Shown: in pieces, positions 23,601 through 54,631 of the stretch
How positions within the stretch are numbered: position 1 is the stretch's first letter
Layout of the letters: the number at the start of each line of letters is the position of its first letter
Source: Microgenomates group bacterium Gr01-1014_7
GTDB taxonomy: Bacteria > Patescibacteriota > Microgenomatia > Daviesbacterales > UBA10151
Direction of reading: 5' to 3'
DNA length: 64,000 nt
Assembly: GCA_007376405.1 (NCBI GenBank)
Contig: VMGD01000004.1
Span: 8,960 to 72,959, forward strand
Position numbers and translations under genes: made by a program
Notes under the pieces: generated by a model
Database searches by the model: none
Seen by the model: only the letters and a program-made list of their open reading frames with translations
Told to the model about the DNA's origin: nothing

Positions 23601-25389
23601 CGAAATAGCTATTGAGGAAGAAGCAGCAGTAATCAACCAGGCTAAAGTAGAGAGGGCTGATGCTTTGGCTTCCGGGGATCAAGCACGTATTGTGGAGGCT
23701 AGACTAAACTTAAGAGATATTATTCTCAATTCTCAATTTGTGGCCACCCATGTATTAAAAGAATTAGGATTGGTAGACGGTAAACTGCCTGTCTGGTCAT
23801 TTAATTTTTTGGATTCAACCACCATGGACGTTTTTACCGAAGCTTTGGCAGATTATGGAGTAGAAGTTGGTGAGTTTGTCGGTGCTGATCCGGGAGCTCC
23901 TGGTGTACCTATAACTCATAATAGTAAAAAAGAGTTTTACGAGATTATGGAAAGGGGCAGAAGAGCCTTAAAAGCAGAATACGACCGGGCTGCCGTGGAG
24001 TTTATGGAAGGTAGGTTTCCAACTAAGGATGATGCGGATAGACCTGCCAGATCTCTTTATATGGCTGCAAGCGATTTCGGTATAGATGAAGACCCTGTTA
24101 CCATTAGCGAGCGAAATAGAATAGTAAATATAGGAGCGGTTCGTGGAAACAGAAGAATCACTGAAACCAGATTTGAACTTTCCACCAGCGGAGGCGTTAT
24201 AGACTATGAACTTGTCTCAACCTTTGGAGATTTAGGATTTTATCCTTTGCCTGTTTGGTGGGGGAGAAAAGATATAAGGGGAATGCATGGATATTACAAA
24301 AGAAGAGACGAGAAAGAATATCATGATCATAAGTTTGCAGATGTAATGGATCCGGTTCAGCATGCCAAAGCACAAGCTGCAGCATATGTAGCAAGAAGGG
24401 CTTTAACCGGAGGGAAGCTATCTGAGATAGCTATGGCTTCAAAAACAAGTGGAATCACCCCGGGCTTCTTGAATGAGACTTTTCTAAGATCAATTGACAT
24501 ATCGGTACTTCTACGTGATTGGGCTGACAAAAGATTGTTGGAAGGATCTAACATAGGAATGAAGGATACAGAGAAATATGCTGACTTAATGAAAAAATGG
24601 CGTTCAGGTAGTAAGCTTTCGGCTGTCGAAGAAAATGAATTGGAAAAATTGAGACAATTAACTTATCTGGATTTTGACAAAATGGACAGGGATATGCAAA
24701 AACAGCTTTATGACACAACGTATGGTGTAATGACTTACCTTCTATATTATCTCCAAGGACTAAAAGAAGTGCAGCAGAACAGAATAGGCAATGCACCCAG
24801 GAATTATGTTTATGATGTTACATTGATGTGGTATGAGCTTAGGAGAGTTCTAAGAAGCGCTAGGAACAAAGAAAAAGGGATAATTGTCAGGCATAAATTT
24901 TCTCCAGAAGCAGGAAGTGAAATAGCCTTAAGAATGGCAGAGGTAATACTTGAGGATGCAGATTATCTATATTTAAAAGGCTATGAAAGAGCAAGACTTT
25001 ATAGAGAAGGAGCACAAATATTATCCCGAGCACTAACTAAACAGGAGAAACAAAATGGGTTTGTAATACCCGAAATACCAGAAGGTGAAAGGACATGGAC
25101 AAACCAGCCTGAAAGAGTTAGAAAAGCTCTAGAAACTATCAGAAGAAGAGGGTTATTGGATTTCATGATAGAAGAGGGATATCAGCTGTATGAAACTAAT
25201 GAAACTGATCCCAGGAGACGTCTTGTTATGCTTAAAAAGGGTGAGGATGGTTATGAAGAAGGTAAGGACAAACCAAAGCCAATTGGTCCGGAAATAATCG
25301 GAATGAAAGTACCGCCTCTGGTACAGGAGCAAATGGCTAAGCAAGATGGAAATAAAAAAGTACAACAGCATTTTGTGGCTGTAGTGTAA
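20644..25389 (+). CDS. giant hypothetical protein (1581 aa), charged/helical, no TM segment seen
   Basis: Uninterrupted 4.7-kb ORF in an AT-rich genome. An RBS GGAGG lies 7 nt upstream. No recognisable catalytic motif. Confidence 0.6.
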   Translation: MLNIERPIMAEGTSGPEGGAVSPGVSKPATVESRIPANEIRANAVLTDTARLQKAQEALRTQLTKEQQDALLSAHQEAVGELGQDPSQEAGVGNYTQTQLLRKARILNEAGFSKEQIHTLLESGLAGVLPAAEFTTFDPDVYSKDHRLRSIAGEIVSSVTAGVADEDLFKRNLSRLEKLVDGGLVTELALADQLRLNLELWRLEATGEIPLQTEDPLLTARDLERIRQEAAKEGGSQFSMARAKYEHFSRISNRTRNLSPQLQIELQKKRKDAREGLVRFKEEKLEDEPAAQQVIEGRTVNVVLRDFREAVFKFYKKFKAAKSNEIYGGDKDAVLRQARHGGDFEETMFDDSIPLKELEGIYGGLLRYMYTGIAQEMDKEQHRRDTKDPLNPIAQQEFEAIKKRRAKERRRDRKYETRSTHYGVIYEFSAENAGELPDAVLDYTKDQIFALLKNPPEDIDKEVRKIEEESGRYLEQNRIRLIEEGQDIPETHPEFVRAKALAKAIPIVLGYEQILYKGGEESAPAYKLKAAADSAGIEDAIYLENPTAALQMHLISTYKDGIYWLGQRWDTEKPESEDYIPGEGATNDLRKEIAEEIIGYAATHELYLSDEMTRGVYLDANGDPILGEDGEAIGAFTYREGKHSGGRDLRYAFDDNIEQLLLDPDGSIWTNTESRLRERGESQDEINKARERHSIRVAVFQRIKDRHDIREGLSFVTYQEIANLKRQNGGRFPTEQQLAAVSKLKKDIMLGQLQQQGLSPQQAEERLRQIMDEHRKEGIRARIKDQLNQKTNLRYSAIAQLTRIAQLDLEDADDKESPSGPLHDKILWKWVEDYNAYLIKIRQSKWHPSGWDRVRVDIDRPTKVLDRELEGDELMAMFELNPLILKYPGQLSDEEKAEKDYKLDEARFGFQLARSYQVFHAVDTITGGMRTRLTDPNTGKYLGKLFGDDEETKKVNRRLGLTDAQGNVIDPNRKIVRVFDVVQTRLEIAIEEEAAVINQAKVERADALASGDQARIVEARLNLRDIILNSQFVATHVLKELGLVDGKLPVWSFNFLDSTTMDVFTEALADYGVEVGEFVGADPGAPGVPITHNSKKEFYEIMERGRRALKAEYDRAAVEFMEGRFPTKDDADRPARSLYMAASDFGIDEDPVTISERNRIVNIGAVRGNRRITETRFELSTSGGVIDYELVSTFGDLGFYPLPVWWGRKDIRGMHGYYKRRDEKEYHDHKFADVMDPVQHAKAQAAAYVARRALTGGKLSEIAMASKTSGITPGFLNETFLRSIDISVLLRDWADKRLLEGSNIGMKDTEKYADLMKKWRSGSKLSAVEENELEKLRQLTYLDFDKMDRDMQKQLYDTTYGVMTYLLYYLQGLKEVQQNRIGNAPRNYVYDVTLMWYELRRVLRSARNKEKGIIVRHKFSPEAGSEIALRMAEVILEDADYLYLKGYERARLYREGAQILSRALTKQEKQNGFVIPEIPEGERTWTNQPERVRKALETIRRRGLLDFMIEEGYQLYETNETDPRRRLVMLKKGEDGYEEGKDKPKPIGPEIIGMKVPPLVQEQMAKQDGNKKVQQHFVAVV

Positions 25390-25398
25390 AATTTAAAT

Positions 25399-27201
25399 TT
25401 ACGGCTTCTTAATTGCACTAATTAACCCTGGTCTACCGTAAAGAGGTTGCCACCCAGCGGCTTTCTTACCTGGAATGGGTTGATACTGTACTTCTCCTGT
25501 AATACTCTGTCTAATCATACCTGTTGTTCCGCTTACAGCCCCTTGAGATTGACCAGCATATCTTTGGCCTGCTCCAATACCGCCGCTAATTTCCTGTCCT
25601 AATAGTTGTCCTGCCTGGCCCATTCTCCCGATAGCGCCAACAACAACATCCGGAATTTTAGGAAGAGCCATTAATGCCCCAAAAGCTAAAAGAATATGAA
25701 TAAAACCTAAATTTAGACCCCCAAATAAGGGTAATGTAGGGCCGGTAAACTGAACCGGGCCGCCTGCTGCAGATACACTTTGTATGAAGCCACTATTTTC
25801 TATCTGATTTGAGCTAGAGATTTTTAGAGGATAATCTGTGCCGATTTTGTCTGTACCTAAAATAAAAGCTACAAAATAAAATACAGCCAAAACTGCAGGG
25901 AAGATTAAGATATTGGCCAGCATATTTAAAATCCAGCCTGTTGCAATCCCTTGTCTACCAGGTAAAGCAGCAGCCATAAATTGAAAAGGGGCGGAAATAG
26001 TCAGAAAAATAATAGTTAAAAAAGCAGAAACCAGACGAAGGAGTAATCTGATCATGGCATATATTAATGCCAAGGTGGCAATAAAACCCAGGGCAAATCC
26101 AAAGGTAAACGTTGGAGCAGTAAATCCGACGATACCTGCAGCTAGTAAAGTCAGTAGTTGAGTCAGAGGTCCTATAATGAATGCCACAGGACCAGCGCCA
26201 GCACTGATTGCAGTACCAATTCCACCAATCCCTCCTGCAATTGGACCAAAGAATTGCGCGACTAAAAATCCTGCAATGGTTCTTAGCGTCAATTGAGTAA
26301 TCCCGGGCAATTGACCTATGATTGTGTCTAAGAATCCTGACACATCGTCATGGCCTACAATGCCTGTTAATGGACCAAATATGTTTATAACATTTTTATC
26401 AGAAATATGCTGAACTAAATTGGTTCTTTGCGGATCATTTGTCTGGTCCTGGGCTGCGGCAAAGTAATACCCCACTACATTTGTTCCCACAAAGGCCATG
26501 TCGGAAATTAGGGCTGCCAGGAAGTAGGAGAAAGTAATTAAGATCAGGCCGATTACCAGGCCGGGGAGGGCTGCCTGGGCTGTTATTACTGTTTGGGGGT
26601 TAATCCGGTTTCTAAACATCACCATCATTCCTATAATTACAAAAACTACTATCATGGCCACATAGGAAATATTTCTTGATACCTGCCAGAGTTTGCTTAT
26701 GGGGTCCAGCACCTGGGCCCCCGAGCCTATTACCTGGGCATGTGCGGGTTTTACAAACCCGATTTGCTCACCCAAGTTGGCCAGATACTGGGAGGTGCTG
26801 ATAGGGGGGTTGGCATACAGGGCCCCGATTATGGAAGTTGTTGCACCTAGCGCTCCTCCGGATAAATTAACCTGGGACAGCACCGGAATGCCGCTCTGGT
26901 AGGTCAGGCAGGGCGCTCCAATCACGGATGAACCAATAGCCAGACAGGAAAAGCTGTGGAACATGTTATGGACCAGCAGGTCGGTATAGAGGGGGGAGGT
27001 AGGGGATACGGTGGCAGGCAGACTTGTGGTGAGCCCCTCGACTTCGCTCGGGGTGAACTCCGTCGAACCAGAGGTGGTTTGGGCGAAAGCGGCAGGAGTA
27101 TAGAGTATTAAGTATAGAGTATAGAGTATAAAAACAAGAACAAGCTTTAGAAAACCCTTACGTCCGAAGGACGGGCGTATTATACTTAATACTTGATACA
27201 T
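25399..27201 (-). CDS. VirB6/TrbL-like polytopic membrane protein with signal peptide
   Basis: The probable start is MYQVLSIIRPSFGRKGFLKLVLVFILYTLYLILYTPAAFA-Q, a signal peptide. This is followed by an ~150-aa ectodomain, then at least 8 hydrophobic helices with Gly-rich loops. Adjacent to the pilin-like array. Confidence 0.45.
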   Translation of the reverse strand: MYQVLSIIRPSFGRKGFLKLVLVFILYTLYLILYTPAAFAQTTSGSTEFTPSEVEGLTTSLPATVSPTSPLYTDLLVHNMFHSFSCLAIGSSVIGAPCLTYQSGIPVLSQVNLSGGALGATTSIIGALYANPPISTSQYLANLGEQIGFVKPAHAQVIGSGAQVLDPISKLWQVSRNISYVAMIVVFVIIGMMVMFRNRINPQTVITAQAALPGLVIGLILITFSYFLAALISDMAFVGTNVVGYYFAAAQDQTNDPQRTNLVQHISDKNVINIFGPLTGIVGHDDVSGFLDTIIGQLPGITQLTLRTIAGFLVAQFFGPIAGGIGGIGTAISAGAGPVAFIIGPLTQLLTLLAAGIVGFTAPTFTFGFALGFIATLALIYAMIRLLLRLVSAFLTIIFLTISAPFQFMAAALPGRQGIATGWILNMLANILIFPAVLAVFYFVAFILGTDKIGTDYPLKISSSNQIENSGFIQSVSAAGGPVQFTGPTLPLFGGLNLGFIHILLAFGALMALPKIPDVVVGAIGRMGQAGQLLGQEISGGIGAGQRYAGQSQGAVSGTTGMIRQSITGEVQYQPIPGKKAAGWQPLYGRPGLISAIKKP

Positions 27202-27239
27202 AATACTAATTAAAGCCCTTTTAATTAAAAAATGCAACC

Positions 27240-27476
27240 CTATTTTACTTTATCCAGTAATTCAAAATATCTATCTCTGGAAATTCCTGCTGTAGTTAAG
27301 TTAGTGCGAATATGTGTGACAGCAACTTGATGGGGACTGATTTTAATTACAACTGGTCGCATAATCCCTGGTTTTGTCATGGAGATATGATCCCCTTTAG
27401 TTCTGGAAACTTGGAATCCCTCATGTTCAAAAATCTGTACTAATTTCTTATAGTGGATTGGAACAATTTTTGGCAT
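27240..27476 (-). CDS. hicA: HicA-like toxin (YcfA family)
   Basis: 78 aa with a GDHISMTKPG-type motif. Immediately downstream of the HicB-like gene. Confidence 0.55.
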   Translation of the reverse strand: MPKIVPIHYKKLVQIFEHEGFQVSRTKGDHISMTKPGIMRPVVIKISPHQVAVTHIRTNLTTAGISRDRYFELLDKVK

Positions 27477-27740
27477 TTAAAATCCTAAGGCCATACGTCC
27501 TGCAACTAAAGGATCATCACTGCGCCACAATCTATTTTCAGGTTTAAATCCAGCTTCAGTTAATACATCCTCCAATGTCCCCATTCTTTTACATTCCTCC
27601 AAGAAAAGCTCAACAGCCTCTTTTAAAGAAACCTTGGCCTCTTTTTTTGTGCTACCGAAACTGGAAACATTTAGCTCGGGGGCAACAGCCACATATTGAC
27701 CATCTTCTTTAAATATTTCAATCCGAAAATTAAGTTGCAT
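27477..27740 (-). CDS. hicB: HicB-like antitoxin (UPF0150)
   Basis: ..FKEDGQYVAVAPELNVSSFGSTKKEAKVSLKEAVELFLE.. matches the HicB N-domain. Confidence 0.55.
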   Translation of the reverse strand: MQLNFRIEIFKEDGQYVAVAPELNVSSFGSTKKEAKVSLKEAVELFLEECKRMGTLEDVLTEAGFKPENRLWRSDDPLVAGRMALGF

Positions 27741-28178: not shown

Positions 28179-29366
28179 ATGAATATAACAACAATCAAGC
28201 CGTTTACTACACCCTTTCTTTCCCGGTTTGTATTTACGCCCAAGCTGATCCCCTTTAGCGACAGGGAAATTACTAAAATAGATACAGAGCTTAAAGATTA
28301 TGAGCAGGTATTTTTAAACCCTGATATTGAGAGGAATTTAATCAGTAGAAATGAACTGCTTGCTTCTTTTGCCATCTCCAAAGCCGAGGATTCTACTTTA
28401 ACCCTGCAGGAAGCGCAGGATGTTTATAAGCTTGTCCTGGCTAATGAAGACTTTACAGAAAAGAAATTAACGCGTAAAGATCATGATAAACTGGAATTTT
28501 TCAATATTGCCAGAACATTCAAAAGCTTAAACCAAGAAAAGATCAGGATTAATGATCTGACCCCGGGGTTTTTACAGGAAGTGCATTTTAATTTAAGTCA
28601 GGGGTTGGATATATTTGGAAAATATTTGCCGGATTTTAATATATACAAAGCAGGTAAGTGGCGGGATAGTGATTCCATCAGGGTTGGCACATATATCCCT
28701 GCCCCTTATGAAAGTATAAAGCAGGGTGTGGAGGAGTTAATCAAATGGCTAAAAGAAAACAGGACTATAACGGGGGTTGCAATATTTCATACTGCCCTTT
28801 ATGCGCTGCACCCTTTCACTAATGGCAACAAAAGAGTTTGCCGGGTGCTAGAGCATTTATTTTTCCGTGACCTGGGGCTTAATAAAAAAAATCTCTACAG
28901 CACTTCGTATTATTATCACAAGCAAAAGGCCCGTTATTATAAATATCTGCTTTTTTCTTTGGAAAGGCAAAACTTAAATCACTTTACCGGTTTTATTCAA
29001 GAAGCATTGGTGTTATCGATGATTGATGTGGTGAAATTAAGTTTGGAAGCAAAACGTCAGGATTTTCTGAACCGGCAGGATATTGAAGGACCAGTGAAAT
29101 CAGTCCTTAAGCCTCTAATAAAAAGATCAGAAATCCAATTTAAAAACCTTTTTAAATATTCAAGGGGGAAAATTGCCAGGCAGACTTTTGTTAATTATTT
29201 ACAGAAGGCAGTTGAGGAGAAAATTTTGTTAAAACGGGAGAAGGGTAAAGCCACCTATTACAGCTTCAATGTTAAGCCTCAACCCGAGGAAGCGACACTT
29301 AAAAAATGGCTTGATTTTGCCAAAGAGAGGTTACCTTACATACCGGATGACATTAAACTAAGGTAA
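28179..29366 (+). CDS. Fic/Doc-family protein with Doc-like catalytic motif
   Basis: HPFTNGNKRVCR matches the Fic core HxFx(D/N)(G/A)N(G/K)R. The N-G-N-K-R variant is the Doc (kinase-type) form rather than the AMPylating GNGR form. Confidence 0.75.
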   Translation: MNITTIKPFTTPFLSRFVFTPKLIPFSDREITKIDTELKDYEQVFLNPDIERNLISRNELLASFAISKAEDSTLTLQEAQDVYKLVLANEDFTEKKLTRKDHDKLEFFNIARTFKSLNQEKIRINDLTPGFLQEVHFNLSQGLDIFGKYLPDFNIYKAGKWRDSDSIRVGTYIPAPYESIKQGVEELIKWLKENRTITGVAIFHTALYALHPFTNGNKRVCRVLEHLFFRDLGLNKKNLYSTSYYYHKQKARYYKYLLFSLERQNLNHFTGFIQEALVLSMIDVVKLSLEAKRQDFLNRQDIEGPVKSVLKPLIKRSEIQFKNLFKYSRGKIARQTFVNYLQKAVEEKILLKREKGKATYYSFNVKPQPEEATLKKWLDFAKERLPYIPDDIKLR

Positions 29367-29954
29367 GGCATTCCGGATATTAAATGTGGTGACATTTACC
29401 CCTGTAAAAGCTTCAATTAAGTTTAATACCAGCCAGGCAATGGCTAGAAAAAGTATTCCCAGCAGGGCCCAGGAGAAAGTGTGGTGGGCCGCCTGAACTG
29501 CTTTTGGTTCACCCCCTGATGTTAAATACTTAAATCCTGCCCAGATAAGCATTATTAGTGAGGCTATGAATGCCAAGCCCACAACCACATTAACAACATT
29601 TTTAAAAACATCCTCAATCTCTTTTAACCCCGCAGCATCATTGACAGTAGTGCCCGCAGGAGTAGCACCGGGTACACATCTGGTCATGTTTGGTGATGGA
29701 ATACCGGTTACCAGTTCATCATTTTCGACTTCGCAATGTGTGCCTGTTGGGCAGTTTTGAAGATGTTCATGTGTACAATCGCCTAAGTTACGATACCTTT
29801 GTATGCCTCCTGCACAATACTGGTCCAGCTGTCCAGAGTAGGGAGCTCTTTGTTCTTCTTCTTGGGGTGTGCAATGGCCGGCATAAACAGGAGAAGGGTA
29901 AAGTGTAAAGGGTAAAGTGAAAAGCAGGATTAGAAGTATTAGTTTTAAATACAT
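29358..29954 (-). CDS. VirB2/TrbC-like T4SS pilin-module protein with Cys-rich N-terminal ectodomain
   Basis: Signal peptide, then 8 Cys (GHCTPQ..YCAGG..GDCTHEHLQNCPTGTHCEV..RCVPG). Conserved C-terminal module LIWAGFKYLTSGGEPKAVQAAHHTFSWALLGILFLAIAWL. Confidence 0.55.
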   Translation of the reverse strand: MYLKLILLILLFTLPFTLYPSPVYAGHCTPQEEEQRAPYSGQLDQYCAGGIQRYRNLGDCTHEHLQNCPTGTHCEVENDELVTGIPSPNMTRCVPGATPAGTTVNDAAGLKEIEDVFKNVVNVVVGLAFIASLIMLIWAGFKYLTSGGEPKAVQAAHHTFSWALLGILFLAIAWLVLNLIEAFTGVNVTTFNIRNALP

Positions 29955-29995
29955 GATACTTAATACATAATACTTAATACTCTTGTTGGGGTCAA

Positions 29996-30451
29996 TTATC
30001 GTGGTGGTGTGGGTATGACGAAGTTTGCAACGTTAAAGCCCAGGAATGATCCTGCTACCTGGAATAGGGCAAAAGCAACCGACAGTATGCCCAAACCCAC
30101 TAAAGCATTAATGATTCTGCCTCTTGCTTTTCCAACAGCTTCTTTATCACCGCCCGAGAAAATCCATTCAAATGCTCCCCAGATAAGCATGAGTAAGACT
30201 ACTACTACAGCCAGTATTAAAAGTAAAGTTAATGTGTTTTGAATAAAATCTCCCAGATTGGCAAAACCAATTGGCTGGTTGTTCTCTCTTGTGGGTCTTT
30301 GGATTTGAATACTTGAATTATCTACATGACCTGGTACATGATTTGCAAATGCGGTAGTGGCACTATAAAAAGAAGTTAGTACTGAGCTTCCAAGAAGAAT
30401 TAATTTTCTCATTACTATATTATAGTATTCATAAATTAAATTGTTTGTCAA
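29996..30451 (-). CDS. VirB2/TrbC-like T4SS pilin-module protein
   Basis: C-terminal module LIWGAFEWIFSGGDKEAVGKARGRIINALVGLGILSVAFA with two hydrophobic helices. Confidence 0.55.
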   Translation of the reverse strand: MTNNLIYEYYNIVMRKLILLGSSVLTSFYSATTAFANHVPGHVDNSSIQIQRPTRENNQPIGFANLGDFIQNTLTLLLILAVVVVLLMLIWGAFEWIFSGGDKEAVGKARGRIINALVGLGILSVAFALFQVAGSFLGFNVANFVIPTPPR

Positions 30452-30466
30452 GCCAGCAGTTTGGCT

Positions 30467-30823
30467 TCACCTTTGACCTGCAAAGAAAGTAAATCCGGTA
30501 AATGTTCCCAAAATTTGAATAATTGCAAATGCCACTGCAAAAAGCATAATGCCAACAAAAGCATTGATCAGTCTGCTTTTGGCATGTTCCAGCTTTTCCT
30601 TATCCCCTCCGGATGTCAGCCAGTCAAAAGCTCCCCAAAGTATCATAAAGATTAAAACAATAGTTGCTACTGAGTAAATCAGAGTAACCAGATTGCTTAA
30701 AACCATGCTGATGGCAGAAGCGCCGCTGGCATCGGTTTCAATAAACCTTCTGAAAACATGCGGTACTCCTATTGTGCCGAATGCAGCTTCAATTTCATGG
30801 TTTGATGCCAAAAGTGTTGACAT
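30467..30823 (-). CDS. VirB2/TrbC-like T4SS pilin-module protein
   Basis: ILWGAFDWLTSGGDKEKLEHAKSRLINAFVGIMLFAVAFA. Confidence 0.55.
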   Translation of the reverse strand: MSTLLASNHEIEAAFGTIGVPHVFRRFIETDASGASAISMVLSNLVTLIYSVATIVLIFMILWGAFDWLTSGGDKEKLEHAKSRLINAFVGIMLFAVAFAIIQILGTFTGFTFFAGQR

Positions 30824-30826
30824 AAT

Positions 30827-31162
30827 TTAATTCCCTCTAAATATATTAAATCCTCCTCTATATCTATTAAATTCAAACAATCCCCCCACTAAAAACTGCA
30901 AAATCAAAAATGCGAACATCAGTATTATAAACCCTACTATGGCATGAGAAATCATCTGTTTTGCCGCAGATACTTCTTCTTTATTTTCTCCTGCCTGAAG
31001 ATACTTAAAAGCTCCCCAGAGAAAGTATAGTATCACCAAAAAAGCAGCAATGGAGAATCCCGGCTCAACCAGTTGGGTTATAGCTGATCCCAAATTCTCA
31101 AACCGTCCTCCCGCAAATCCAAATTCATTGCCTATATTTACTGCAGCATAAGCAGTTTTCAA
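30827..31162 (-). CDS. VirB2/TrbC-like T4SS pilin-module protein
   Basis: FLWGAFKYLQAGENKEEVSAAKQMISHAIVGFIILMFAFL. Confidence 0.55.
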   Translation of the reverse strand: MKTAYAAVNIGNEFGFAGGRFENLGSAITQLVEPGFSIAAFLVILYFLWGAFKYLQAGENKEEVSAAKQMISHAIVGFIILMFAFLILQFLVGGLFEFNRYRGGFNIFRGN

Positions 31163-31494
31163 AATGGTACTCCTCCTTTTGTTGGCGGAAATATTTCACC
31201 TGCAAATGTTGTTATAAAAAAGGCCAGTAAAATAACTACCAGGCCAATTAAAGCATAAGCAATCCGGGCCCGGGCTTTTGCCAGATTTTCTTTATTCCCC
31301 TGGGCCATAATGTAGGCAAATGCCCCCCAGACTAAATATATAAAAGCCAAAAAGGCTGCAATATAGAAGGCAATGGTTAGAAGGGGGGAAATAATGGAGC
31401 CCAGATTGGTAAACTCACCTTTTAGGCTGTCCGGTCCTGTAATGGTATTTCCTCCTGGCAATTTTAAAGCTAATTTCATAGATTTAAGATTCAC
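31159..31494 (-). CDS. VirB2/TrbC-like T4SS pilin-module protein
   Basis: LVWGAFAYIMAQGNKENLAKARARIAYALIGLVVILLAFF. The annotated GTG start lies inside direct repeat R1; the true start may be the internal MKLALKLPGG. Confidence 0.5.
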   Translation of the reverse strand: MNLKSMKLALKLPGGNTITGPDSLKGEFTNLGSIISPLLTIAFYIAAFLAFIYLVWGAFAYIMAQGNKENLAKARARIAYALIGLVVILLAFFITTFAGEIFPPTKGGVPF

Positions 31495-31513
31495 GATTTA
31501 TGATTTACGAATG
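31478..31513. repeat. direct repeat R1 flanking the four-helix-bundle gene
   Basis: ATAGATTTAAGATTCACGATTTA[TGATTTA]CGAAT. It pairs with R2 at 31882-31910. Confidence 0.6.
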
Positions 31514-31898
31514 TTTTTGTGCTTCTGATAAATCCCTGCAAAATTTGATGAGCTAGATTTGCCTGATCTGCTAAAGAATTAAAATCCTTAACATCAAGAT
31601 ATCCTACATCTTTTGCAATAAGTATAAAGTTTTTTAATTCAGTTAATGATCCTTGGGATAAGTAATAGAATTGCAATTTTTCCTTATAAGAATGTCTACC
31701 AAATCCTTCAGCAATATTAGCCGTCACAGATGATGCTGCTCTTCTCATCTGGTCGACCAAAGAATAAGTTTCCTCTTTAGGAAATGTTTTGGTTATTTTG
31801 TAAACCATAACTACTAGAATATGCCCTTCCTGCCAAACTTTCAAATCCGTAAATGTCTGTATCTTTCCATTCTTCATAAAAATAGATTTAAGATTCAT
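31491..31898 (-). CDS. four-helix-bundle protein (23S rRNA intervening-sequence protein family)
   Basis: ..DLKVWQEGH..VYKITKTFPKEETYSLVDQMRRAASSVTANIAEGFGRHSYKEKLQFYYLSQGSLTELKNFILIAKDVGYL.. is the canonical pattern for this family. Confidence 0.7.
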   Translation of the reverse strand: MNLKSIFMKNGKIQTFTDLKVWQEGHILVVMVYKITKTFPKEETYSLVDQMRRAASSVTANIAEGFGRHSYKEKLQFYYLSQGSLTELKNFILIAKDVGYLDVKDFNSLADQANLAHQILQGFIRSTKTFVNHKS

Positions 31899-31910
31899 GA
31901 TTTACGAATT
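31882..31910. repeat. direct repeat R2 flanking the four-helix-bundle gene
   Basis: ATAGATTTAAGATTCATGATTTACGAAT. It contains the gene's ATG start. Confidence 0.6.
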
Positions 31911-31947
31911 ATTCTTAAATCTCTATTCTTAAATCTTAAATCACTCT

Positions 31948-33432
31948 TTACCGGGCGAAGCCTGGTAACCTTAAGATATCAAATCCAATGATTTGCATCA
32001 GCAGAACGGCAAAAATAACCATTAGTAGTCCTATTATTGCATTGGTAAACCTGTCTTTTCCTGTTGCCAAAGTTTCCGGATTTCCTGCAGAAGTTAACAT
32101 CTGGAATGCTCCCAAAAGCATCATCAAAAATGCAAACCCTCCCCCAATGGCAATGATAAATGTCAAAAAGTCTTTGGTAAATCCCACTGGATCAGTATGC
32201 ACGCACCCAATGGCTGTTTTAAATCCTTTCCCCCCGTCACAGGGAATCCCCCCCGCCGCAGCCGGACTCCCGGCAGGAGCACCCCGTCCTCCTGGGCCGG
32301 TGGAAGGACTAGGCGCTGGAGAAACAACAGTATCAGGAGGGGAGGCTGTACAACTTCCAGGTTGGCTGGGATCATTACTTATGGTAAACCCTCCTTGAGC
32401 TATTACATTACCCGAATTGCATGCGGTTGAACTTTCCATTACGCTCATTGTATGAGGCCCCGTATCATAAGTTCCTAAATTAAATTCAATGTTTCCACCT
32501 GACGATGCATTGCATGTTGTTCCACTGGTGGGGTTACGGCCGTCTACAGAAACTTTATATATGCCATCTGGTACCCCGGGAATTGTGATTTGAACATTAT
32601 CACCAGAGGTAAACCGGGGATTGGTACAGGTAATTGAACTCGTTAGTACGGAACTGACGACAAAGGAAGCAGTTGCTAGATCAATCTCTTGCCCGGCTCT
32701 TTCTCCTGTTATCTTGATATTATAATTTCCGGCCTGGAAGCTCTGGCAAGTGCTTGCCGGTGTACGATGGTAAACATAAATATCCCCTATAGAACATATA
32801 GCCATTGATAAATTACCGCTTGTGTCAGGGTTAATAGTTCCTGAAATTTGTTGCCATTGCCCGCTATCTTTTTGAATATAATATCTGTATGTCATATTGC
32901 TGCGCAGATTGCTCAAAATGGCTTGAATATTTGTAGCACTGATTGTTAATGTGGTAGTTGAGAGAGAAAGCCTTACTCCGGAGATAACTGTAAAAGGACC
33001 ACTTGTTATGACTGGGTTAGGGTTAGGTTCGCTCACGGAAGCTAGTCTTATTGTTACTGTATAATTTGTTAAATCAAAAAATCTGCATGCACTACTTGCA
33101 TCTGCATAGACAATTCTTCCTGGATTGAAAACTGGACAGAATTCGAAAGAGAGACTGGTGCCTGTAGGTTGACGGTACGCATGGGTGATCCGATCCATTG
33201 CAGTACCGCCTCGATAGATAGGTATTTCTGTTGATTCATTACCCTTTTTTACATAAAGAATGTAACCTTGTCCTCCTCTTAAATTACTAACGGTAATGTG
33301 GGCATTATCTTGGACAGATACAGGGTTAGGTGATACTGATACTGATATTGATTGGGCTTGAACTATGGAAACATTCTGAAAACAGAGAAGTAAAAGGGAT
33401 ATAAGTATTCTTATAAAAACAATTTTCCCCAT
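31948..33432 (-). CDS. large secreted protein: beta-rich Ser/Thr-rich ectodomain fused to a C-terminal VirB2/TrbC-like pilin module
   Basis: Signal peptide, then ~400 aa rich in T/S/N/G with Ig-like segments, then a Gly/Pro linker. The C-terminus carries MLLGAFQMLTSAGNPETLATGKDRFTNAIIGLLMVIFAVL, the module shared with the five small paralogs. Confidence 0.55.
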   Translation of the reverse strand: MGKIVFIRILISLLLLCFQNVSIVQAQSISVSVSPNPVSVQDNAHITVSNLRGGQGYILYVKKGNESTEIPIYRGGTAMDRITHAYRQPTGTSLSFEFCPVFNPGRIVYADASSACRFFDLTNYTVTIRLASVSEPNPNPVITSGPFTVISGVRLSLSTTTLTISATNIQAILSNLRSNMTYRYYIQKDSGQWQQISGTINPDTSGNLSMAICSIGDIYVYHRTPASTCQSFQAGNYNIKITGERAGQEIDLATASFVVSSVLTSSITCTNPRFTSGDNVQITIPGVPDGIYKVSVDGRNPTSGTTCNASSGGNIEFNLGTYDTGPHTMSVMESSTACNSGNVIAQGGFTISNDPSQPGSCTASPPDTVVSPAPSPSTGPGGRGAPAGSPAAAGGIPCDGGKGFKTAIGCVHTDPVGFTKDFLTFIIAIGGGFAFLMMLLGAFQMLTSAGNPETLATGKDRFTNAIIGLLMVIFAVLLMQIIGFDILRLPGFAR

Positions 33433-33507
33433 AACTTCACCTTAGCACAAACCTTATATCTTGACAATTAAGCGTAATCGTTTTATACTTGTATATACAA
33501 TATATAT

Positions 33508-33816
33508 ATGCCCATAATTAAGGGAAGGAAGGTTGTTGAGTTTGATTGGGATGAGGCAAACATTGCCCATATAGCAAAGCATAATGTATTGCCGGAAGAG
33601 GCAGAAGAGGTATTTTTTGATGAAAATAATGTGCAGGATGAGGATGTAGCACATTCAACAGCTGAAAAGCGTCTTTTAATAATTGGACAAACAGGAAAGG
33701 GAAGATTACTTTATCAAATATTTACCATAAGAGGAAAGAAAATCAGAGTTATTTCCTCTCGCGATATTAACAAAAAGGAGGTCCGGTTATATGAAAAAAA
33801 AATTAGTCGTTCCTAA
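33508..33816 (+). CDS. brnT: BrnT-family toxin (DUF497 ribonuclease)
   Basis: ..VVEFDWDEANIAHIAKHNVLPEEAEEVFFDE.. Confidence 0.7.
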   Translation: MPIIKGRKVVEFDWDEANIAHIAKHNVLPEEAEEVFFDENNVQDEDVAHSTAEKRLLIIGQTGKGRLLYQIFTIRGKKIRVISSRDINKKEVRLYEKKISRS

Positions 33817-34054
33817 ATTCAAAAGTGAAGCAGAAGAGGCCGAGTTTTGGGCCAAACTTAACTTAATGGAATATTTTGAACCTTCTGATTTTAAAAGAGG
33901 AATAATATTCCCTAATTTAAAACGCAGCAAGCGCCTCATTTCTATTAGACTCCCTGAAGAACTGATTGGTAAGGTAAAGAAAAAGGCATCTAATCTGGAT
34001 ATACCATACCAAAGCCTGATCCGTCAGTATATTCAGCAGGGAGTAGCCCAATAA
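33791..34054 (+). CDS. brnA: BrnA-family antitoxin
   Basis: ..EAEEAEFWAK..ISIRLPEELIGKVKKKASNLDIPYQSLIRQYI.. Overlaps brnT by 26 nt. Confidence 0.65.
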   Translation: MKKKLVVPKFKSEAEEAEFWAKLNLMEYFEPSDFKRGIIFPNLKRSKRLISIRLPEELIGKVKKKASNLDIPYQSLIRQYIQQGVAQ

Positions 34055-34093
34055 GAAAATATTTTCCCATCCCCTCCACCTTAGCACATTCTA

Positions 34094-34129
34094 TAGATTA
34101 GGGTCTAGGGTTTAGCCACTGGGGTATAG
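34094..34129. repeat. second copy of the GGGTNTAGGGTTTAG inverted-repeat arm family
   Basis: TAGATTAGGGTCTAGGGTTTAGCCACTGGGGTATAG resembles 7114-7148. The complementary arm ACCCTATACCCTATACCCTATACCCTATACCCTG lies at 34261-34293, in-frame inside the next gene's signal peptide. Confidence 0.5.
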
Positions 34130-34221
34130 TAAAATAAACACATGCTCACTTCTTACCGTCAACTGACTGTTTGGCAAAAGGCATTTGAATTATCAAAAGT
34201 GAGTAGTTTTTCTTATCCTAA

Positions 34222-35937
34222 ATGAAAAAAATATTGTTTTTTATATTGTTTTTGTATCTTACCCTATACCCTATACCCTATACCCTATACCCTGTTTCTG
34301 CTGATGAAATAGAGGATTTGCAAAAGCAGATTGATGAGCTAAACCGTGCCCGGGAGCTTTCCGTCAAAGCAACCAAACCTTTGGAAGGCCAATTTGATTC
34401 CTTAAAACGCCAGCTTGCACAAATTCAGGCCAATTTGGATAATCTATCTGCCAATATTGGTAAAAAACAAAAAGAGCTAGATATAAGAGAAGATAAGATT
34501 GCCCTGCAGCAGGCTTTACTGGAAAAAAGAGTAAAAGCTTACTACATCCGGTCATACCTGGCAGATCCACTTTTGGTTATTCTTTCCTCAATTCACTCGG
34601 GGGATTTATTCAGAGAGCTTGCCCTTCGTCAATCCGTGGCAAGAGAAGACCGGAAAATAATTACTTCTATAACGGCAGAAGTGGTTGATTTACTCACTCA
34701 AAAAACCAAGCTGGAAAAAGACAAAGCTAAGCTCGCGATCTTTCAAGAAGAAGTGGATAAAAATGCCAAATTTTTGGGAGGGGAAATTAAAAAAGCCAAA
34801 GATTATCAAACCCAACTTAGTAGTCAAATTGCTCAGCTTTCTGCCAGACAGCAGCAAATTATTGCCCAAAGGCAAGCCAGTTTGAATTTGCCCACTTCTT
34901 TGGGAGCAGGGCCGCTTTTTTGCACAGATGATAGAAAATTAGACCCGGGTTTTAGGCCTGGCTTTGCCTTTTTTACTTTTGGTATTCCGCACCGTGTGGG
35001 CATGAACCAGTATGGAGCTTATGGCAGGTCACAGGCAGGGCAAAGTCATGAGGATATATTGCGGGCCTATTTTCAGGATTTTTCTTTTGAACAGCGGCCA
35101 AATATTAATATTTCCGTGCAGGGTTATGGTTCAATGCCGCTGGAAACTTATCTTTTGGGAATTTATGAAATGCCTGATTCCTGGCCGCCGGAGGCCTTAA
35201 AAGCACAAGCCATATCTGCCCGCTCTTATGCTCTTGCCTTTACTAATAATGGGGCCGGTGAAATTTGCACCAGCCAACTTTGTCAAGTCTATAAAGGAGG
35301 TAATAAAGGCGGCAATTGGGAGCAGGCAATTAGGGCAACTGAGGGGAAAGTAATGGTTTCGGGAGGGGTGGTTGTTAAAGCCTGGTATTCTTCAACCGAC
35401 GGAGGCTATACTTTCACATCAGGAGATGTTTTTGGCGGCAACCGCTCCTTTACTAAAAGATTGCGGGATACTAATGGGGACATAGGTAATTTTTCTGACC
35501 TGTTCTCCAAAGCTTATGACAGGGATTCTCCCTGTTTTTATGCGGCCCAGGGGTTTAGGGCTGAATTTGCCAAATCAGCCTGGTTAAAATCGGAAGAGGT
35601 GGCAGACATTGCCAATGTGATTATGCTTTCCAAGAAAGACTCGGGAGTGGCGTCCCATATTTACCAGACAGACAAACCCAATCCTGAAGGAGGGGAGACA
35701 TGGGATAAAGATAAAGTTAAACAGGAGTTGCGAGGCAGAGGAGGGAGCCCTTTCAGCAGTGTTTCTTCGGTTTCTGTGTCCGGCGATTTTTCCTCAGGTA
35801 TGGTTTCGTCGGTGACAGTTTCAGGAGACAAGGGTTCGGAAACATTCAATGCCGGCGAATTTAAAAACTTTTTTAATATTCGTGCCCCGGCCAATATACA
35901 AATTGTCGGACCGCTTTTTAATGTTGAGCAAAAGTAG
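34222..35937 (+). CDS. SpoIID/LytB-domain cell-wall lytic protein with N-terminal signal peptide and long coiled coil
   Basis: ..PHRVGMNQYGAYGRSQAGQSHEDILRAYF.. and ..EALKAQAISARSYALAF.. match the SpoIID/LytB domain. The N-terminal ~200 aa are a heptad-rich coiled coil. Confidence 0.7.
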   Translation: MKKILFFILFLYLTLYPIPYTLYPVSADEIEDLQKQIDELNRARELSVKATKPLEGQFDSLKRQLAQIQANLDNLSANIGKKQKELDIREDKIALQQALLEKRVKAYYIRSYLADPLLVILSSIHSGDLFRELALRQSVAREDRKIITSITAEVVDLLTQKTKLEKDKAKLAIFQEEVDKNAKFLGGEIKKAKDYQTQLSSQIAQLSARQQQIIAQRQASLNLPTSLGAGPLFCTDDRKLDPGFRPGFAFFTFGIPHRVGMNQYGAYGRSQAGQSHEDILRAYFQDFSFEQRPNINISVQGYGSMPLETYLLGIYEMPDSWPPEALKAQAISARSYALAFTNNGAGEICTSQLCQVYKGGNKGGNWEQAIRATEGKVMVSGGVVVKAWYSSTDGGYTFTSGDVFGGNRSFTKRLRDTNGDIGNFSDLFSKAYDRDSPCFYAAQGFRAEFAKSAWLKSEEVADIANVIMLSKKDSGVASHIYQTDKPNPEGGETWDKDKVKQELRGRGGSPFSSVSSVSVSGDFSSGMVSSVTVSGDKGSETFNAGEFKNFFNIRAPANIQIVGPLFNVEQK

Positions 35938-40662: not shown

Positions 40663-41385
40663 TTGGTGAACTTAATATTGGATGTTTTATTTCCCAAAAA
40701 ATGCGTAGGTTGTGGTAAGTTTGACAGCTATTTTTGTTCCGATTGTGTTTCAAATATCAGGCAGGGGGAACTGATTTGTCCTGTTTGTGATATCCCTTCC
40801 GTTTTTGGAGAGACCCACCCCTTTTGTAAGCGGGTATTTGGCCTTGATGGTTTATGGAGTTTAGGGCTGTATCAGGGGTCTTTAAAAAAAGCCATTCAAA
40901 AACTAAAATATAAACCCGCTCTGGTCAGGGATTTTGTCCCGGTTTTGGTAAATATTATAGTTGAGTATTGGACAAAGTACCAGCCTGTTATTTTTGATGA
41001 AATATGTTTTGATCAAATAAAAAAGGATAAAGGGCAGGGGTGGGTAGTTGTACCGGTGCCTCTTTTCTGGTGGAGAGAAAATGATCGTGGTTTTAACCAG
41101 TCAAAACTTATCGGACAATTATTATCCAAAAAATTAGGTTTGGATTACTGCGAAGGTCTTAAACGCATTCGTTATACCAGGTCTCAAGCAAGACTTAAGG
41201 AAAAAGACCGGCGTAAAAATATCCGCGGTGCATTTGAAATTTCTTCCAACTATACCCTATACCCTAAACCCTATACCCTTCTTATCGACGATGTCTGGAC
41301 CACAGGTTCAACCCTTAAAGAATGCTGCTACGTTTTAAAAAGAGCTGGCGCCCAAAAAGTCTGGGCTCTAACTTTGGCTAGATAA
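40663..41385 (+). CDS. comFC: ComF-family phosphoribosyltransferase-like competence protein
   Basis: N-terminal Cys pairs (CVGCG..CSDC..CPVC). C-terminal PRTase motif LLIDDVWTTGSTL. TTG or GTG start. Confidence 0.8.
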   Translation: MVNLILDVLFPKKCVGCGKFDSYFCSDCVSNIRQGELICPVCDIPSVFGETHPFCKRVFGLDGLWSLGLYQGSLKKAIQKLKYKPALVRDFVPVLVNIIVEYWTKYQPVIFDEICFDQIKKDKGQGWVVVPVPLFWWRENDRGFNQSKLIGQLLSKKLGLDYCEGLKRIRYTRSQARLKEKDRRKNIRGAFEISSNYTLYPKPYTLLIDDVWTTGSTLKECCYVLKRAGAQKVWALTLAR

Positions 41386-41418: not shown

Positions 41419-41505
41419 GGAGGAGTCGCATAGAGGCCGAGTGCCGCTTCGTGCTAAGAAGCTATACCCGTAAGGGTATCGTGGGTTCGAATCCCACCTC
41501 CTCCG
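41419..41505 (+). tRNA. tRNA-Ser (anticodon GCT)
   Basis: Acceptor GGAGGAG/CTCCTCC. Anticodon loop GTGCTAA. Long variable arm. T-arm GTGGGTTCGAATCCCAC. Confidence 0.85.
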
Positions 41506-41531
41506 CACTTCGACGCGCTCAGTGCAAGCCA

Positions 41532-41619
41532 GGAGGGGTCGCCTAGTGGCTTTATGGCGGAAGTCTTGAAAACTTCTAGGGGCTAACGCTCCTCGTGGGT
41601 CCGAATCCCACCCCCTCCG
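41532..41619 (+). tRNA. tRNA-Ser (anticodon TGA)
   Basis: Acceptor GGAGGGG/CCCCTCC. Anticodon loop CTTGAAA. Long variable arm. T-arm GTGGGTCCGAATCCCAC. Confidence 0.85.
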
Positions 41620-54605: not shown

Positions 54606-54631
54606 CCTTCGCTCGCCGAAGCGAGCTACGG

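Follow-up and report, generated by a model that had tools for sequence, protein, structure and literature searches.

Gene Content of the Locus

The analyzed window, 64 kb of DNA from a Microgenomates (CPR) bacterium, contains an array of pilin genes in a region where the gene strand is minus throughout. Upstream of the junction studied here lies a gene (31948–33432) for a protein of 494 aa with a C-terminal T4SS-pilin domain (PF18895, E = 4.5e-10). Its C-terminus is conserved among syntenic loci, and its TAA stop codon is located 5 nt ahead of an array of 7-nt units, here called arm L. It is followed by a gene for a four-helix-bundle (4HB) protein, by the first small downstream pilin (31159–31479, with the ATG at 31477–31479; PF18895, E = 1.6e-10), and by four more T4SS-pilin paralogues (29358–31162). 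The placement of the 4HB gene within a pilin array, proposed in an earlier note on this DNA, is thus borne out by the PF18895 genes on its two sides. Rfam yielded no known RNA family at the locus and no rRNA in the window. To our knowledge, the 4HB (S23p) proteins have remained an orphan family for some three decades, met in rRNA intervening sequences (IVSs) and at scattered positions, with no known function or means of moving.

The assignment of the ORF 31491–31898 to the four-helix-bundle proteins holds as well, with 124.8 bits for PF05635 (cut-off 33.8) and 115.1 bits for TIGR02436 (cut-off 24). A sequence match to PDB entry 2GSC (XCC0516) covers residues 12–114 with E = 1e-17. The segment QMRRAASSVTANIAEG includes RxxxSxxxNxxE, which is part of the conserved motif GxxRxxxSxxxNxxE of the PF05635/TIGR02436 family (PMC3936711); Q replaces the initial G of the motif. 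The longest ORF corresponds to 135 aa. Among the matches listed, close homologues are mostly 128 aa long and start with MK(N/D)GK. Because of this prevailing length, the true start codon is most likely the ATG at 31877–31875, which defines a minus-strand gene at 31491–31877 with a product of 128 aa.

Weak similarity of the same protein to bAvd (PF22296, E = 1.5e-4) and to NF033474 (23.7 bits) could be taken to mean that it serves as Avd, the accessory protein, in a diversity-generating retroelement with the pilins as its targets. Both matches are below threshold (22.7 bits for PF22296 against a cut-off of 40, and a cut-off of 80 bits for NF033474). A Pfam scan of 47 window ORFs detected no reverse transcriptase, and no longer repeat of the template/variable type is present among the repeats listed for positions 29000–34500. 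The retroelement reading was rejected on these grounds, and we give it practically no credence.

Repeats Flanking the 4HB Gene

A repeat search in the 64-kb window identified a pair of direct repeats, R (31478–31512) and R' (31882–31909), spaced 404 nt apart. On the minus strand, R' (31909–31882) reads ATTCGTAAATCA immediately followed by TGAATCTTAAATCTAT, and R (31512–31478) reads ATTCGTAAATCA, TAAATCG, and TGAATCTTAAATCTAT; the sole difference in length is one additional 7-nt unit, present in R. A 23-nt pattern of the repeat with at most three mismatches has two matches in 64 kb, R and R', and the number expected from 100 shuffles is 0.00. The 28-bp direct repeat that had been reported to flank the 4HB gene is therefore real, and its coordinates were right within 1 nt. 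The C/T difference noticed between the copies comes from the additional unit of R, which has G instead of A before TGAATC (cGTGA in R, cATGA in R'). Neither the 28-mer nor either of its halves was found 5' of the other pilin paralogues of the window array, the four distal ones included. This rules out a shared pilin promoter or RBS, the explanation that the earlier note had set against its own.

A third copy of the repeat, in inverted orientation, had been missed. It constitutes arm L (31911–31942, minus strand), a non-coding 5' array GATTTAA GATTTAA GAATAGA GATTTAA GAAT, which is an inverted complement of both R and R'. The inverted-repeat search gives it 78% complementarity to R (over 32 nt, 31481–31512) and 81% to R', and TRF detects a period of 7 at 31913–31942 and 31481–31510. 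Arm R (31478–31512, minus strand) is the 3' array, ATTC GTAAATC ATAAATC GTGAATC TTAAATC TAT. It encodes the tail of the 4HB protein (FVNHKS), the TGA stop codon (31491–31493), and a GTG (31492–31494) that is ATG in four of the six relatives; the longest ORF of the first downstream pilin begins within the arm, at GTG 31494. In the basic design, arm L adjoins the start codon of the 4HB gene, and arm R takes in the end of its coding sequence with the stop codon and extends roughly a dozen bases farther. The true boundaries of the cassette are the inverted arrays of 7-nt units, L and R.

Folding of whole-cassette RNAs produced pairing between the 5' flank and the 3' end in 6/6 orthologues (15–36 bp) and in the window (27 bp). 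As these predicted folds suggest, L and R probably pair in the transcript and loop out the ORF.

R' (31882–31909, minus strand) is a copy of arm R less one 7-nt unit. It is contained in a lineage-specific insertion of about 30 nt that terminates in a T-run (31878–31882). An assembly artefact was ruled out as its source by the same exact L-R'-ATG junction in L103 and L104, two ENA contigs that were assembled separately. R' includes an ATG (31896–31898, minus strand) that corresponds, in relatives, to the start codon of the next pilin and that yields an in-frame MNLKSIF extension, hence the 135-aa ORF. By comparison with homologues, this N-terminal extension is spurious. Two earlier claims are affected. 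The upstream repeat copy does hold an ATG, but given that most listed close homologues have 128 aa, it is most likely not the start of the gene. Both longest ORFs do begin with MNLKS, but the true start of the 4HB gene is likely elsewhere, and the ORF beginnings are identical because R' carried the start codon of the neighbouring pilin together with the MNLKS codons. The hairpin formed by L and R' has z = -4.2; it was not flagged by the terminator scan, being AT-rich with too few G-C pairs. In the minimum-free-energy fold of the window cassette, the partner of L remains R, not R'.

The Same Junction in Related Genomes

Six related genomes (L001, L005, L008, L009, L094, and L095) carry the same 4HB gene at the corresponding pilin junction. 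Protein identity of the related loci to the window is 82–98% for the 4HB protein, 44–85% for SpoIID, and 54–87% for the first downstream pilin, whose orthologues are found in related loci with an empty junction as well. In the alignment of the six orthologous loci R' is absent from all, and L stands beside the ATG. Among the orthologues, the distance from L to the ATG ranges from 0 to ~32 nt, and this segment is an indel hotspot. By the same alignment, R is ancestral, and R' is a recent duplicate of about 30 nt of arm R, inserted, exclusively in this lineage, between L and the start codon.

Both arms are conserved in 7/7 loci. The mean pairwise identity among the seven syntenic loci is 0.87 for L and 0.92 for R, compared with 0.65 for third codon positions of the ORF, and the arm sequences are kept together with their mismatches. 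The reading frame of the 4HB gene is intact in all loci, with dN/dS of 0.03–0.09 and dS of 0.37–1.9 between the window gene and its six orthologues. These values point to purifying selection on the 4HB protein and its arms. Since dS between the loci is that large, the gene is a long-term resident of the junction and not a recent arrival.

Junctions lacking the gene were located via SpoIID homologues; a metagenome scan with the downstream pilin gave only four weak loci. The comparison with gene-free pilin arrays, which the earlier note had recommended, yielded empty orthologous junctions without arms in two loci. In L102, the junction consists of a stop codon, 7 nt, and the ATG of the orthologous pilin. 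In L101, a 4HB gene of another subfamily is located one gene further along. A third locus, L100, has a 4HB gene of a different subfamily at the very same junction. The arms and the ORF are present or absent as one block between two co-directional pilin genes.

In the earlier reading, the 28-bp direct repeats were the ends or the target duplication of a 4HB cassette that had recently been inserted or tandemly duplicated with its own 5' end. This agrees with a real repeat whose copies, spaced by 404 nt, flank the ORF and with the gene being an indel relative to some relatives; moreover, Campbell-type integration of a circle made of the ORF and R into an existing L:R hairpin would formally give the order L-R'-ORF-R. 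However, the gene is found without R' at the same junction of six orthologous loci, dS argues for long residence, and the 28-mer is missing from the empty sites. R belongs to the conserved coding tail of the gene, R' is specific to the window, and the direct repeats are not a target-site duplication. In addition, no near-identical cassette was found in another context among 81 loci, that is, there is no sign of recent transposition. A recent insertion bounded by direct repeats is thus highly improbable. What stands of this claim is a discrete and dispensable cassette, as the empty junction of L102 demonstrates, with inverted arrays of 7-nt units as its true boundaries. The duplication that was postulated to carry the 5' end of the gene is instead, by the alignment, a copy of about 30 nt of the 3' arm placed before the 4HB start codon.

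Taken as a whole, the data are likely explained by a 4HB gene that resides in a hairpin-type cassette with the design of the 23S rRNA IVS, that has long been resident at this junction, and that acquired R' as a lineage-specific duplicate of arm R.

Occurrence of the Layout among 4HB Homologues

The layout was compared between 77 4HB homologues from other CPR genomes and 283 control ORFs from the same loci. The median inverted-repeat score is 14.5 for the 4HB ORFs (n = 77) and 7.0 for the controls (n = 283), and 61/77 homologues score above the 95th percentile of the controls. RNA duplex energy did not separate the two sets, since the pairing energy of AT-rich arms is low compared with that of fortuitous GC pairing; arm pairing was measured by alignment score and repeat-unit comparison instead. 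Self-identity at a lag of 7 nt for the 77 ORFs is 0.57 upstream and 0.50 around the stop codon, compared with ~0.3 at other lags. The upstream arm ends ~2 nt before the ATG, and the downstream arm spans approximately -16 to +12 nt, counted from the end of the stop codon.

The two sides correspond to each other. The upstream unit is the reverse complement of the downstream unit at six or more of seven positions in 47/77 loci, compared with 16% of cross-locus pairs, and the 77 loci contain at least 22 unit types, with both sides co-varying. The upstream neighbour is co-directional in 64/69 loci, the median gap being 36.5 nt. Within the stems, G:U mismatches are not more frequent than A:C mismatches (53 vs 62), so that by this measure a sense RNA stem, a DNA-level structure, and an antisense structure are indistinguishable.

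Similar arms were also observed outside the CPR genomes. Inverted arms surround five of the six cyanobacterial plasmid 4HB copies read and one copy from Riemerella, and the IVS in helix 45 of an Azospirillum 23S rRNA has inverted heptad arms at both sides. A minority of cassettes (Pseudanabaena and, in part, L086 and L089) have direct, not inverted, arrays. In L100, L086, and L089 we observed the mirror arrangement, in which L and the ORF are followed by an L':R hairpin. Full-text searches of open-access papers turned up no description of 4HB genes outside rRNA that are enclosed by inverted heptad arrays.

Heptad repeats are not confined to 4HB genes. Heptad hairpins without an ORF are common elsewhere in the same genome, including the window, and heptad arrays of this genome also lie within the signal-peptide codons of SpoIID, of one pilin, and of a 612-aa protein.

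Three further explanations of the arms have to be weighed against this larger sample. The arms could be DNA-level terminal inverted repeats of a non-autonomous MITE-like element that has no RNA structure and whose transposase is encoded elsewhere. Such an element would account for discrete presence and absence with arms included, for the inverted termini, for the absent G:U bias, and for the scattered, strain-specific distribution of the 4HB family. However, ends recognised by a transposase are not expected to fall into at least 22 unit types with co-varying sides, nor to be tandem arrays of varying unit number. No target-site duplication is seen when occupied and empty junctions are compared, no transposase is found nearby, and recent copies in new contexts were not found. 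The strong co-directional, operon-internal bias also argues against such an element, and we consider it unlikely.

Alternatively, the 7-nt arrays could be slippage-prone contingency repeats that switch neighbouring surface-protein genes by frame or spacing, R and R' being by-products. Heptanucleotide phase variation is known in Haemophilus (PMC8262952, PMC12721329). The difference of exactly one unit between R' and R, the variable distance from L to the ATG among orthologues, and the arrays in signal-peptide codons mentioned above are all in line with such switching. Against it, the unit number and sequence of the arms are highly conserved in seven diverged loci, and the 4HB frame is intact in each. 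It also leaves unexplained the complementary sides and the specific bracketing of 4HB ORFs (61/77 compared with 5% of controls), and in our opinion is very doubtful.

Finally, the heptad arrays could be binding sites of a pentameric 4HB protein, serving autoregulation, maintenance, or mobilisation; their symmetry would then come from protein binding, not from pairing. The arm sequences are conserved, mismatches included, beyond the needs of pairing, which fits a protein-binding site equally well as a stem, and the protein is under strong purifying selection. Each arm comprises 4–5 units, and the relative whose structure has been solved forms a homopentamer (PMC4990558, citing Lin 2006); the likeness of the window protein to a pentamer is drawn from its sequence relation to this XCC0516/2GSC structure. 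The homologous Avd works with nucleic acid and reverse transcriptase (PMC10053308), and some cassettes have direct arrays on either side. On the other hand, side-to-side complementarity is the rule, exactly as in the IVS stems cut by RNase III, and heptad hairpins lacking a 4HB ORF are common in the same genome. Protein binding as the source of the symmetry is accordingly a minor candidate, and we prefer the hairpin-type cassette.

Comparison with Known Elements

The closest known element is the ORF-bearing 23S rRNA IVS of Coxiella or Leptospira. In Coxiella, the IVS has a terminal inverted-repeat stem of 28 bp that is cut by RNase III, and tandem heptamers of variable number are located upstream of the S23p ATG, in a region prone to change (PMC4990558). 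The window cassette shares with such IVSs the family of the ORF (PF05635), terminal inverted repeats that enclose the ORF in a stem of ~28–32 bp (32 nt for L:R), and an element length of ~430–470 nt. As in the Coxiella type, tandem heptamers of varying number directly upstream of the ATG form a change-prone segment. The differences are as follows. The window cassette is located between two genes of a pilin operon rather than within an rRNA (helix 25 or 45), and it has the additional duplicated arm R'. Excision by RNase III was demonstrated for Coxiella, whereas for the window it is a prediction by analogy. The ORF of the Coxiella IVS was reported to be decaying and probably untranslated (PMC4990558), whereas the window ORF is under strong purifying selection (dN/dS 0.03–0.09).

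Avd proteins belong to a homologous four-helix-bundle, pentamer-forming fold family (PMC10053308), in agreement with the weak HMM matches, but heptad arms at the flanks have not been described for Avd retroelements.

The window cassette resembles an integron cassette (an ORF with attC) in being a small, promoter-less, variably present single-ORF unit that is co-directional in an array and bounded by imperfect palindromes. The integron cassette has a single 3' attC hairpin, whereas here the palindrome is divided between two arms that flank the ORF, and the arms are tandem 7-nt arrays without a conserved core site. Neither an integron integrase nor another tyrosine recombinase was found among the window ORFs scanned. 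The two flanking arms and the missing tyrosine recombinase led us to reject the integron cassette. The sole recombinase among the scanned ORFs is a large serine recombinase encoded 10 kb away, beside a tRNA gene.

MITEs and REP/BIME palindromes are likewise short inverted repeats at gene boundaries. In contrast to them, arms of the window type vary between copies and co-vary pairwise, no target-site duplication is seen, and no multi-copy family of identical elements was found among the 81 loci. The absent target duplication, the variable ends, and the lack of near-identical copies led us to reject an IS or MITE.

Heptanucleotide tandem repeats as such (STRR, TAACTGA, and GGGAATC arrays) are described for cyanobacteria, Beggiatoaceae, and Xanthomonas in PMC4679880 and PMC4692102. 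They share with the window arms the 7-nt period and an intergenic or start-proximal location, and arrays of this kind flank the cyanobacterial plasmid 4HB genes. A term search of both papers gave no link of the repeats to 4HB genes or to inverted arrays that enclose an ORF.

Possible Mechanism and Implications

The origin of R', a single event, was probably replication slippage or template switching between the repetitive and mutually complementary arms. By likeness to the rRNA IVSs, the L:R stem is a predicted substrate of RNase III; no RNase III gene (rnc) was detected among the window ORFs scanned. In addition or instead, the stem may sequester the starts of both the 4HB gene and the next pilin gene. 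A looped-out element could reside in an operon with little polar damage. In the window lineage, R' would allow L to pair locally, in a hairpin that precedes a U-run, and this may change read-through or processing. R' would also render the ORF deletable through recombination between R' and R.

A more general scenario is possible, although we would sooner bet against it than for it. PF05635 4HB genes with paired arms of 7-nt repeats would constitute one widespread class of hairpin-borne cassettes, of which the 23S rRNA IVSs are only the rRNA-resident subset. Such cassettes would settle between co-directional genes of operons, such as pilin arrays and cas operons, where they are tolerated via arm pairing; the arm duplicates (R' here, and L' in L100, L086, and L089) would represent intermediates in the gain or loss of ORFs, and the 4HB pentamer would act on heptad-repeat nucleic acid. 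If this scenario is true, recombination between R' and R would leave ORF-less heptad hairpins like those found elsewhere in the genome, and the 4HB family would be linked to the unexplained richness of CPR bacteria, cyanobacteria, and other groups in heptanucleotide repeats.

Several consequences follow from the observed layout. The IVS design is not specific to rRNA but accompanies most of the sampled 4HB members, including those in protein-coding operons, and the CPR 4HB protein is strongly conserved and not decaying. What seemed a scattered cargo gene can be treated as a defined element with testable parts, namely the stem, the heptad units, and the arm duplications. For annotation, gene callers run ORFs into the arms, producing MNLKSIF here and the extended N-termini of neighbouring pilins, and the annotation of CPR surface proteins may be affected where signal-peptide codons contain heptad arrays.

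Structure of the cassette

All genes of the region lie on the minus strand. The gene at 31948-33432, for a protein of 494 aa that carries a T4SS-pilin domain at its C-terminus, ends in TAA, and 5 bases past this stop begins L, the 5' arm of the cassette (GATTTAAGATTTAAGAATAGAGATTTAAGAAT, 31942-31911). One base after L comes R' (ATTCGTAAATCATGAATCTTAAATCTAT, 31909-31882), then a T-run and the four-helix-bundle (4HB) ORF, which starts ATGAAG and has the 3' end ACATTCGTAAATCATAAATCGTGA. The 3' arm R (ATTCGTAAATCATAAATCGTGAATCTTAAATCTAT, 31512-31478) lies at the end of this ORF and is immediately followed by the first small pilin gene, with the start ATGAAATTAGCT. In profile HMM searches, the 4HB protein falls clearly within PF05635 and TIGR02436, and its neighbours are PF18895 pilins. 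The exact L-R'-ATG junction is found in two separately assembled contigs.

The direct repeat that the earlier note saw flanking the 4HB ORF is real. It consists of R' and R, which in the repeat listing of the region differ in length by one 7-nt unit. The extra unit of R supplies a G (cGTGA) where R' has A (cATGA), hence the C/T difference recorded on the plus strand. With a 23-nt pattern and up to three mismatches, R' and R are the sole sites in 64 kb, and none is expected by chance. Neither half of the repeat was found upstream of the other four pilin paralogues, so that the 28-mer is not a promoter or ribosome-binding site (RBS) shared by the pilin genes.

L, R, and R' are all made of 7-nt units, GATTTAA on one side and TTAAATC on the other, and the inverted-repeat listing gives L a complementarity of 78% with R and of 81% with R'. 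The hairpin predicted for L and R' (z = -4.2) is followed by UUUUU; it is AT-rich, and the terminator scan called no terminator there. The 4HB protein has thousands of relatives. The majority of the listed close relatives have 128 aa, which makes the ATG at 31877 the most likely start of the protein, rather than the ATG within R'.

R' as a lineage-specific copy of the 3' arm

Six related loci (L001, L005, L008, L009, L094, and L095) have an 82-98% identical 4HB in the position it has in the window, with the large pilin-domain protein on one side and the first small pilin on the other. In the alignments, both arms are kept in 7/7 loci, and the last codons of the ORF (FVNHKS) and its stop lie in R. 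The 4HB stop overlaps, as ATGA, the caller-used start of the next pilin in four of these relatives (L005, L008, L094, and L095), and this pilin there begins MNLKS. R' was not found in the alignments of any of the six, including the locus with the 98%-identical 4HB, and 0 to ~16 nt separate L from the ATG in these relatives. Judged from this absence, R' is a lineage-specific insertion of ~30 nt that copies arm R. It matches R of L094 except for one missing unit and differs from the present R of the window at two further positions; the alignments establish that it originated recently. Since the copied R holds the pilin start codon, R' contains an in-frame ATG and seven spurious codons, MNLKSIF. 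Thus, the direct repeat does not bound the cassette, as had been supposed, R being a conserved 3' arm and R' being absent from the six relatives, and the copied segment is this 3' arm, not the gene's own 5' end.

The gene itself did not arrive here recently, the junction being occupied in all six relatives at dS of 0.37-1.9. Protein identity to the window for the 4HB, SpoIID, and the first pilin, respectively, is 94, 85, and 68% in L001; 91, 75, and 54% in L095; 90, 73, and 63% in L005; 89, 62, and 57% in L008; and 82, 44, and 66% in L009. L094, which stops short of the SpoIID gene, has 98% for the 4HB and 87% for the first pilin. The dN/dS ratio of the 4HB gene is 0.03-0.09, and the arms have mean pairwise identities of 0.87 (L) and 0.92 (R), compared with 0.65 for third codon positions of the ORF. 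On these comparisons, the 4HB gene is a long-term resident of the pilin junction, and purifying selection acts on the protein and the arms alike.

Inverted heptad arms across the 4HB family

The more interesting result is a hairpin architecture that recurs across the sampled family. A scan of the genome collection yielded 80 loci, in varied gene contexts and in many lineages of CPR, whose 4HB proteins are 46-90% identical to that of the window; 77 of the ORFs were analysable. Their flanks have 7-nt tandem repeats before the ATG, matched around the stop by repeats of the reverse complement. At a 7-nt lag, self-identity reaches 0.57 for the upstream flank and 0.50 for the stop region, versus ~0.3 at other lags. 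The median inverted-repeat score is 14.5, versus 7.0 for 283 control ORFs of the same loci, and exceeds the control 95th percentile in 61/77 cases. The median stem length is 29 aligned positions, including 5 mismatches. The 5' arm ends ~2 nt before the ATG, and the 3' arm straddles the stop codon, reaching from ~16 nt upstream to 12 nt downstream of its end. The arms of a cassette co-vary: at least 22 unit types occur (e.g. GTATTAC, GTAACTA, CGTAACG, and AGTAAGA), and the two sides agree at six or more of the seven unit positions in 47/77 loci, compared with 16% of cross-locus pairs. The nearest upstream ORF is co-directional in 64/69 loci (median gap 36.5 nt, which just fits an arm) and the downstream one in 51/65 (median gap 17 nt), proportions whose contrast with a random 50% is overstated, bacterial neighbours being usually co-directional anyway. 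Whole-cassette folds predicted for the window and for 6/6 orthologues pair the 5' flank with the 3' end.

Beyond CPR, eight plasmid-borne homologues were considered: six cyanobacterial, one from Riemerella, and one from Azospirillum. Inverted arms are present in 5/6 cyanobacterial copies and in the Riemerella copy. The cassette lies co-directionally between cas10 and cmr3 on a Picosynechococcus plasmid (L110) and between cas6 and cas4 on a Pseudanabaena plasmid (L108); 4HB genes within cas loci have been noted already (PMC3936711). L108 is an exception to the inverted-arm rule, with long direct arrays, (AAAAGCT)n and (AAAAGCC)n, on both sides. The Azospirillum match is a classical intervening sequence (IVS) in helix 45 of 23S rRNA, with CAGAGGA/CGGAGGA-type units on both sides.

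Duplicated arms are found elsewhere as well. In three other cassettes, L100 (4572-5087), L089 (about 3380-3480), and L086 (about 1130-1250), the arrangement is the mirror image, a copy of the 5' arm after the ORF being predicted to pair locally with the 3' arm. The hairpin of L100 is strong (z = -5.25), and its direct repeat across the ORF spans 34 nt at 79% identity. Given these three, arm duplication is a recurrent minority variant. In 4/79 cassettes, the score for direct repeats on either side of the ORF is above the 95th percentile of the controls.

Gain and loss of the cassette

Further relatives were reached through SpoIID homologues. In L102 (SpoIID 78% identical), the junction is empty and armless: TAG, aacattt, and the ATG of the orthologous pilin. 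In L101 (80%), it is also empty (TGA, 13 nt, ATG); the first small pilin is followed by a 4HB of 118 aa that belongs to another subfamily and has arms of the AAATTTG type, at a position where the window has a 4-nt gene overlap. In L100 (82%), the junction holds a 129-aa 4HB of the L101 subfamily with CAAATTA-type arms. These junctions establish that arms and ORF are gained and lost together, as a block. The observation of the earlier note is confirmed, and its reading of the unit as a cassette stands, whereas recency, the bounding repeat, and a carried 5' end do not.

No target-site duplication is visible between occupied and empty junctions of L100-L102. Among 81 loci, cassette pairs with at least 80% nucleotide identity are syntenic ones only, and hence there is no sign of recent transposition.

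The pilin cluster of the window is also interrupted by toxin-antitoxin and Fic genes (27240-27740, 28179-29366, and 33508-34054), namely a HicA/HicB-like pair, BrnT/CopG, and Fic. Related loci have other genes, PIN/MazE and HicAB, in the same intergenic slots. Apparently, the cluster is a hotspot of small accessory insertions.

Possible function and relation to known systems

In the polycistronic transcript, L probably base-pairs with R, looping out the ORF; by analogy with the IVS, we infer that this stem would be a substrate of RNase III. Since the 4HB start is directly adjacent to L, and both the 4HB stop and the pilin start fall within R, a further role of the stem could be to couple or gate translation of the two genes. 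Mismatches in the stems show no G:U bias. In the orthologues the mismatches of the arms are kept, which would fit a protein-binding site as well. Slippage or template switching that involved the two arms, which are repetitive and complementary, may have given rise to R'; it would now rival R for pairing with L, and R'/R recombination could delete the ORF.

The IVS of Coxiella (428-444 nt, helix 45) contains an S23p ORF; its ends form a 28-bp inverted-repeat stem that RNase III cleaves, and just 5' of the S23p ATG lies a change-prone segment of GACAGAT tandem heptamers, variable in number (PMC4990558). Some CPR rRNA insertions carry an ORF of the 4HB family (PMC11270868). The window locus has the design of an IVS but lies in a protein-coding operon and has a freshly duplicated arm; therefore, we count it as a variant of the IVS kind. 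A full-text literature search found no description of 4HB genes outside rRNA that are enclosed by inverted heptad arrays, and none of the 4HB-family terms tried occur in two papers on heptamer repeats (PMC4679880, PMC4692102). Membership tests led to rejection of an integron cassette and of a MITE. Avd, the accessory protein of diversity-generating retroelements, was also rejected: HMM scores are below cut-offs, and a Pfam scan of 47 window ORFs found no reverse transcriptase.

Other repeats and neighbours in the window

Hairpins of inverted 7-nt arrays without a 4HB ORF occur at 7117-7190, 27096-27207, 29894-29981, and 34100-34293, at boundaries of genes within or close to the pilin cluster, with units such as TAGGGTA/CTATACC and GAGTATA/ATACTTA; single arrays lie at 16667-16696 and 41250-41279. 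The hairpins resemble the leftovers expected from R'/R recombination at the 4HB locus. Some arrays fall in signal-peptide codons: 34260-34293 (SpoIID, LYPIPYTLYP), 29894-29924 (198-aa pilin), and 27096-27130 (612-aa ORF). SpoIID signal-peptide arrays are also present in L101 and L102, near position 7001, and in all three loci the RBS is preceded by an inverted complement. Each SpoIID orthologue has a unit type of its own. Such arrays could act as expression switches, because adding or losing a single unit would change the frame, or they could form stems that cover the start region.

T4SS-like components surround the pilin array (4525-8260 and 20644-27237), namely a TraG/VirB4-like ATPase (4525-6291), a PrgI-family protein (7190-8260), and two proteins of 1581 and 612 aa without a significant Pfam match; their neighbourhood is conserved in related loci. 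A cobalamin riboswitch (58.5 bits, 8317-8470), unusual for a reduced CPR genome, precedes a 405-aa ORF (8503-9720) with no Pfam match. The region 41419-45972 is probably a mobile element integrated at a tRNA gene: a large serine recombinase of 1133 aa (41576-44977, minus strand), adjoined by a Bro-N domain gene, overlaps the 3' end of tRNA-Ser(tga). Finally, a perfect G+C-rich 38-nt tandem repeat of 3.4 copies (CGGACAAAGTCCGCCAGGTAGATCGCGAAGGCGAGATT, 54632-54759) begins 25 nt past tRNA-Ser(cga) (54524-54607).
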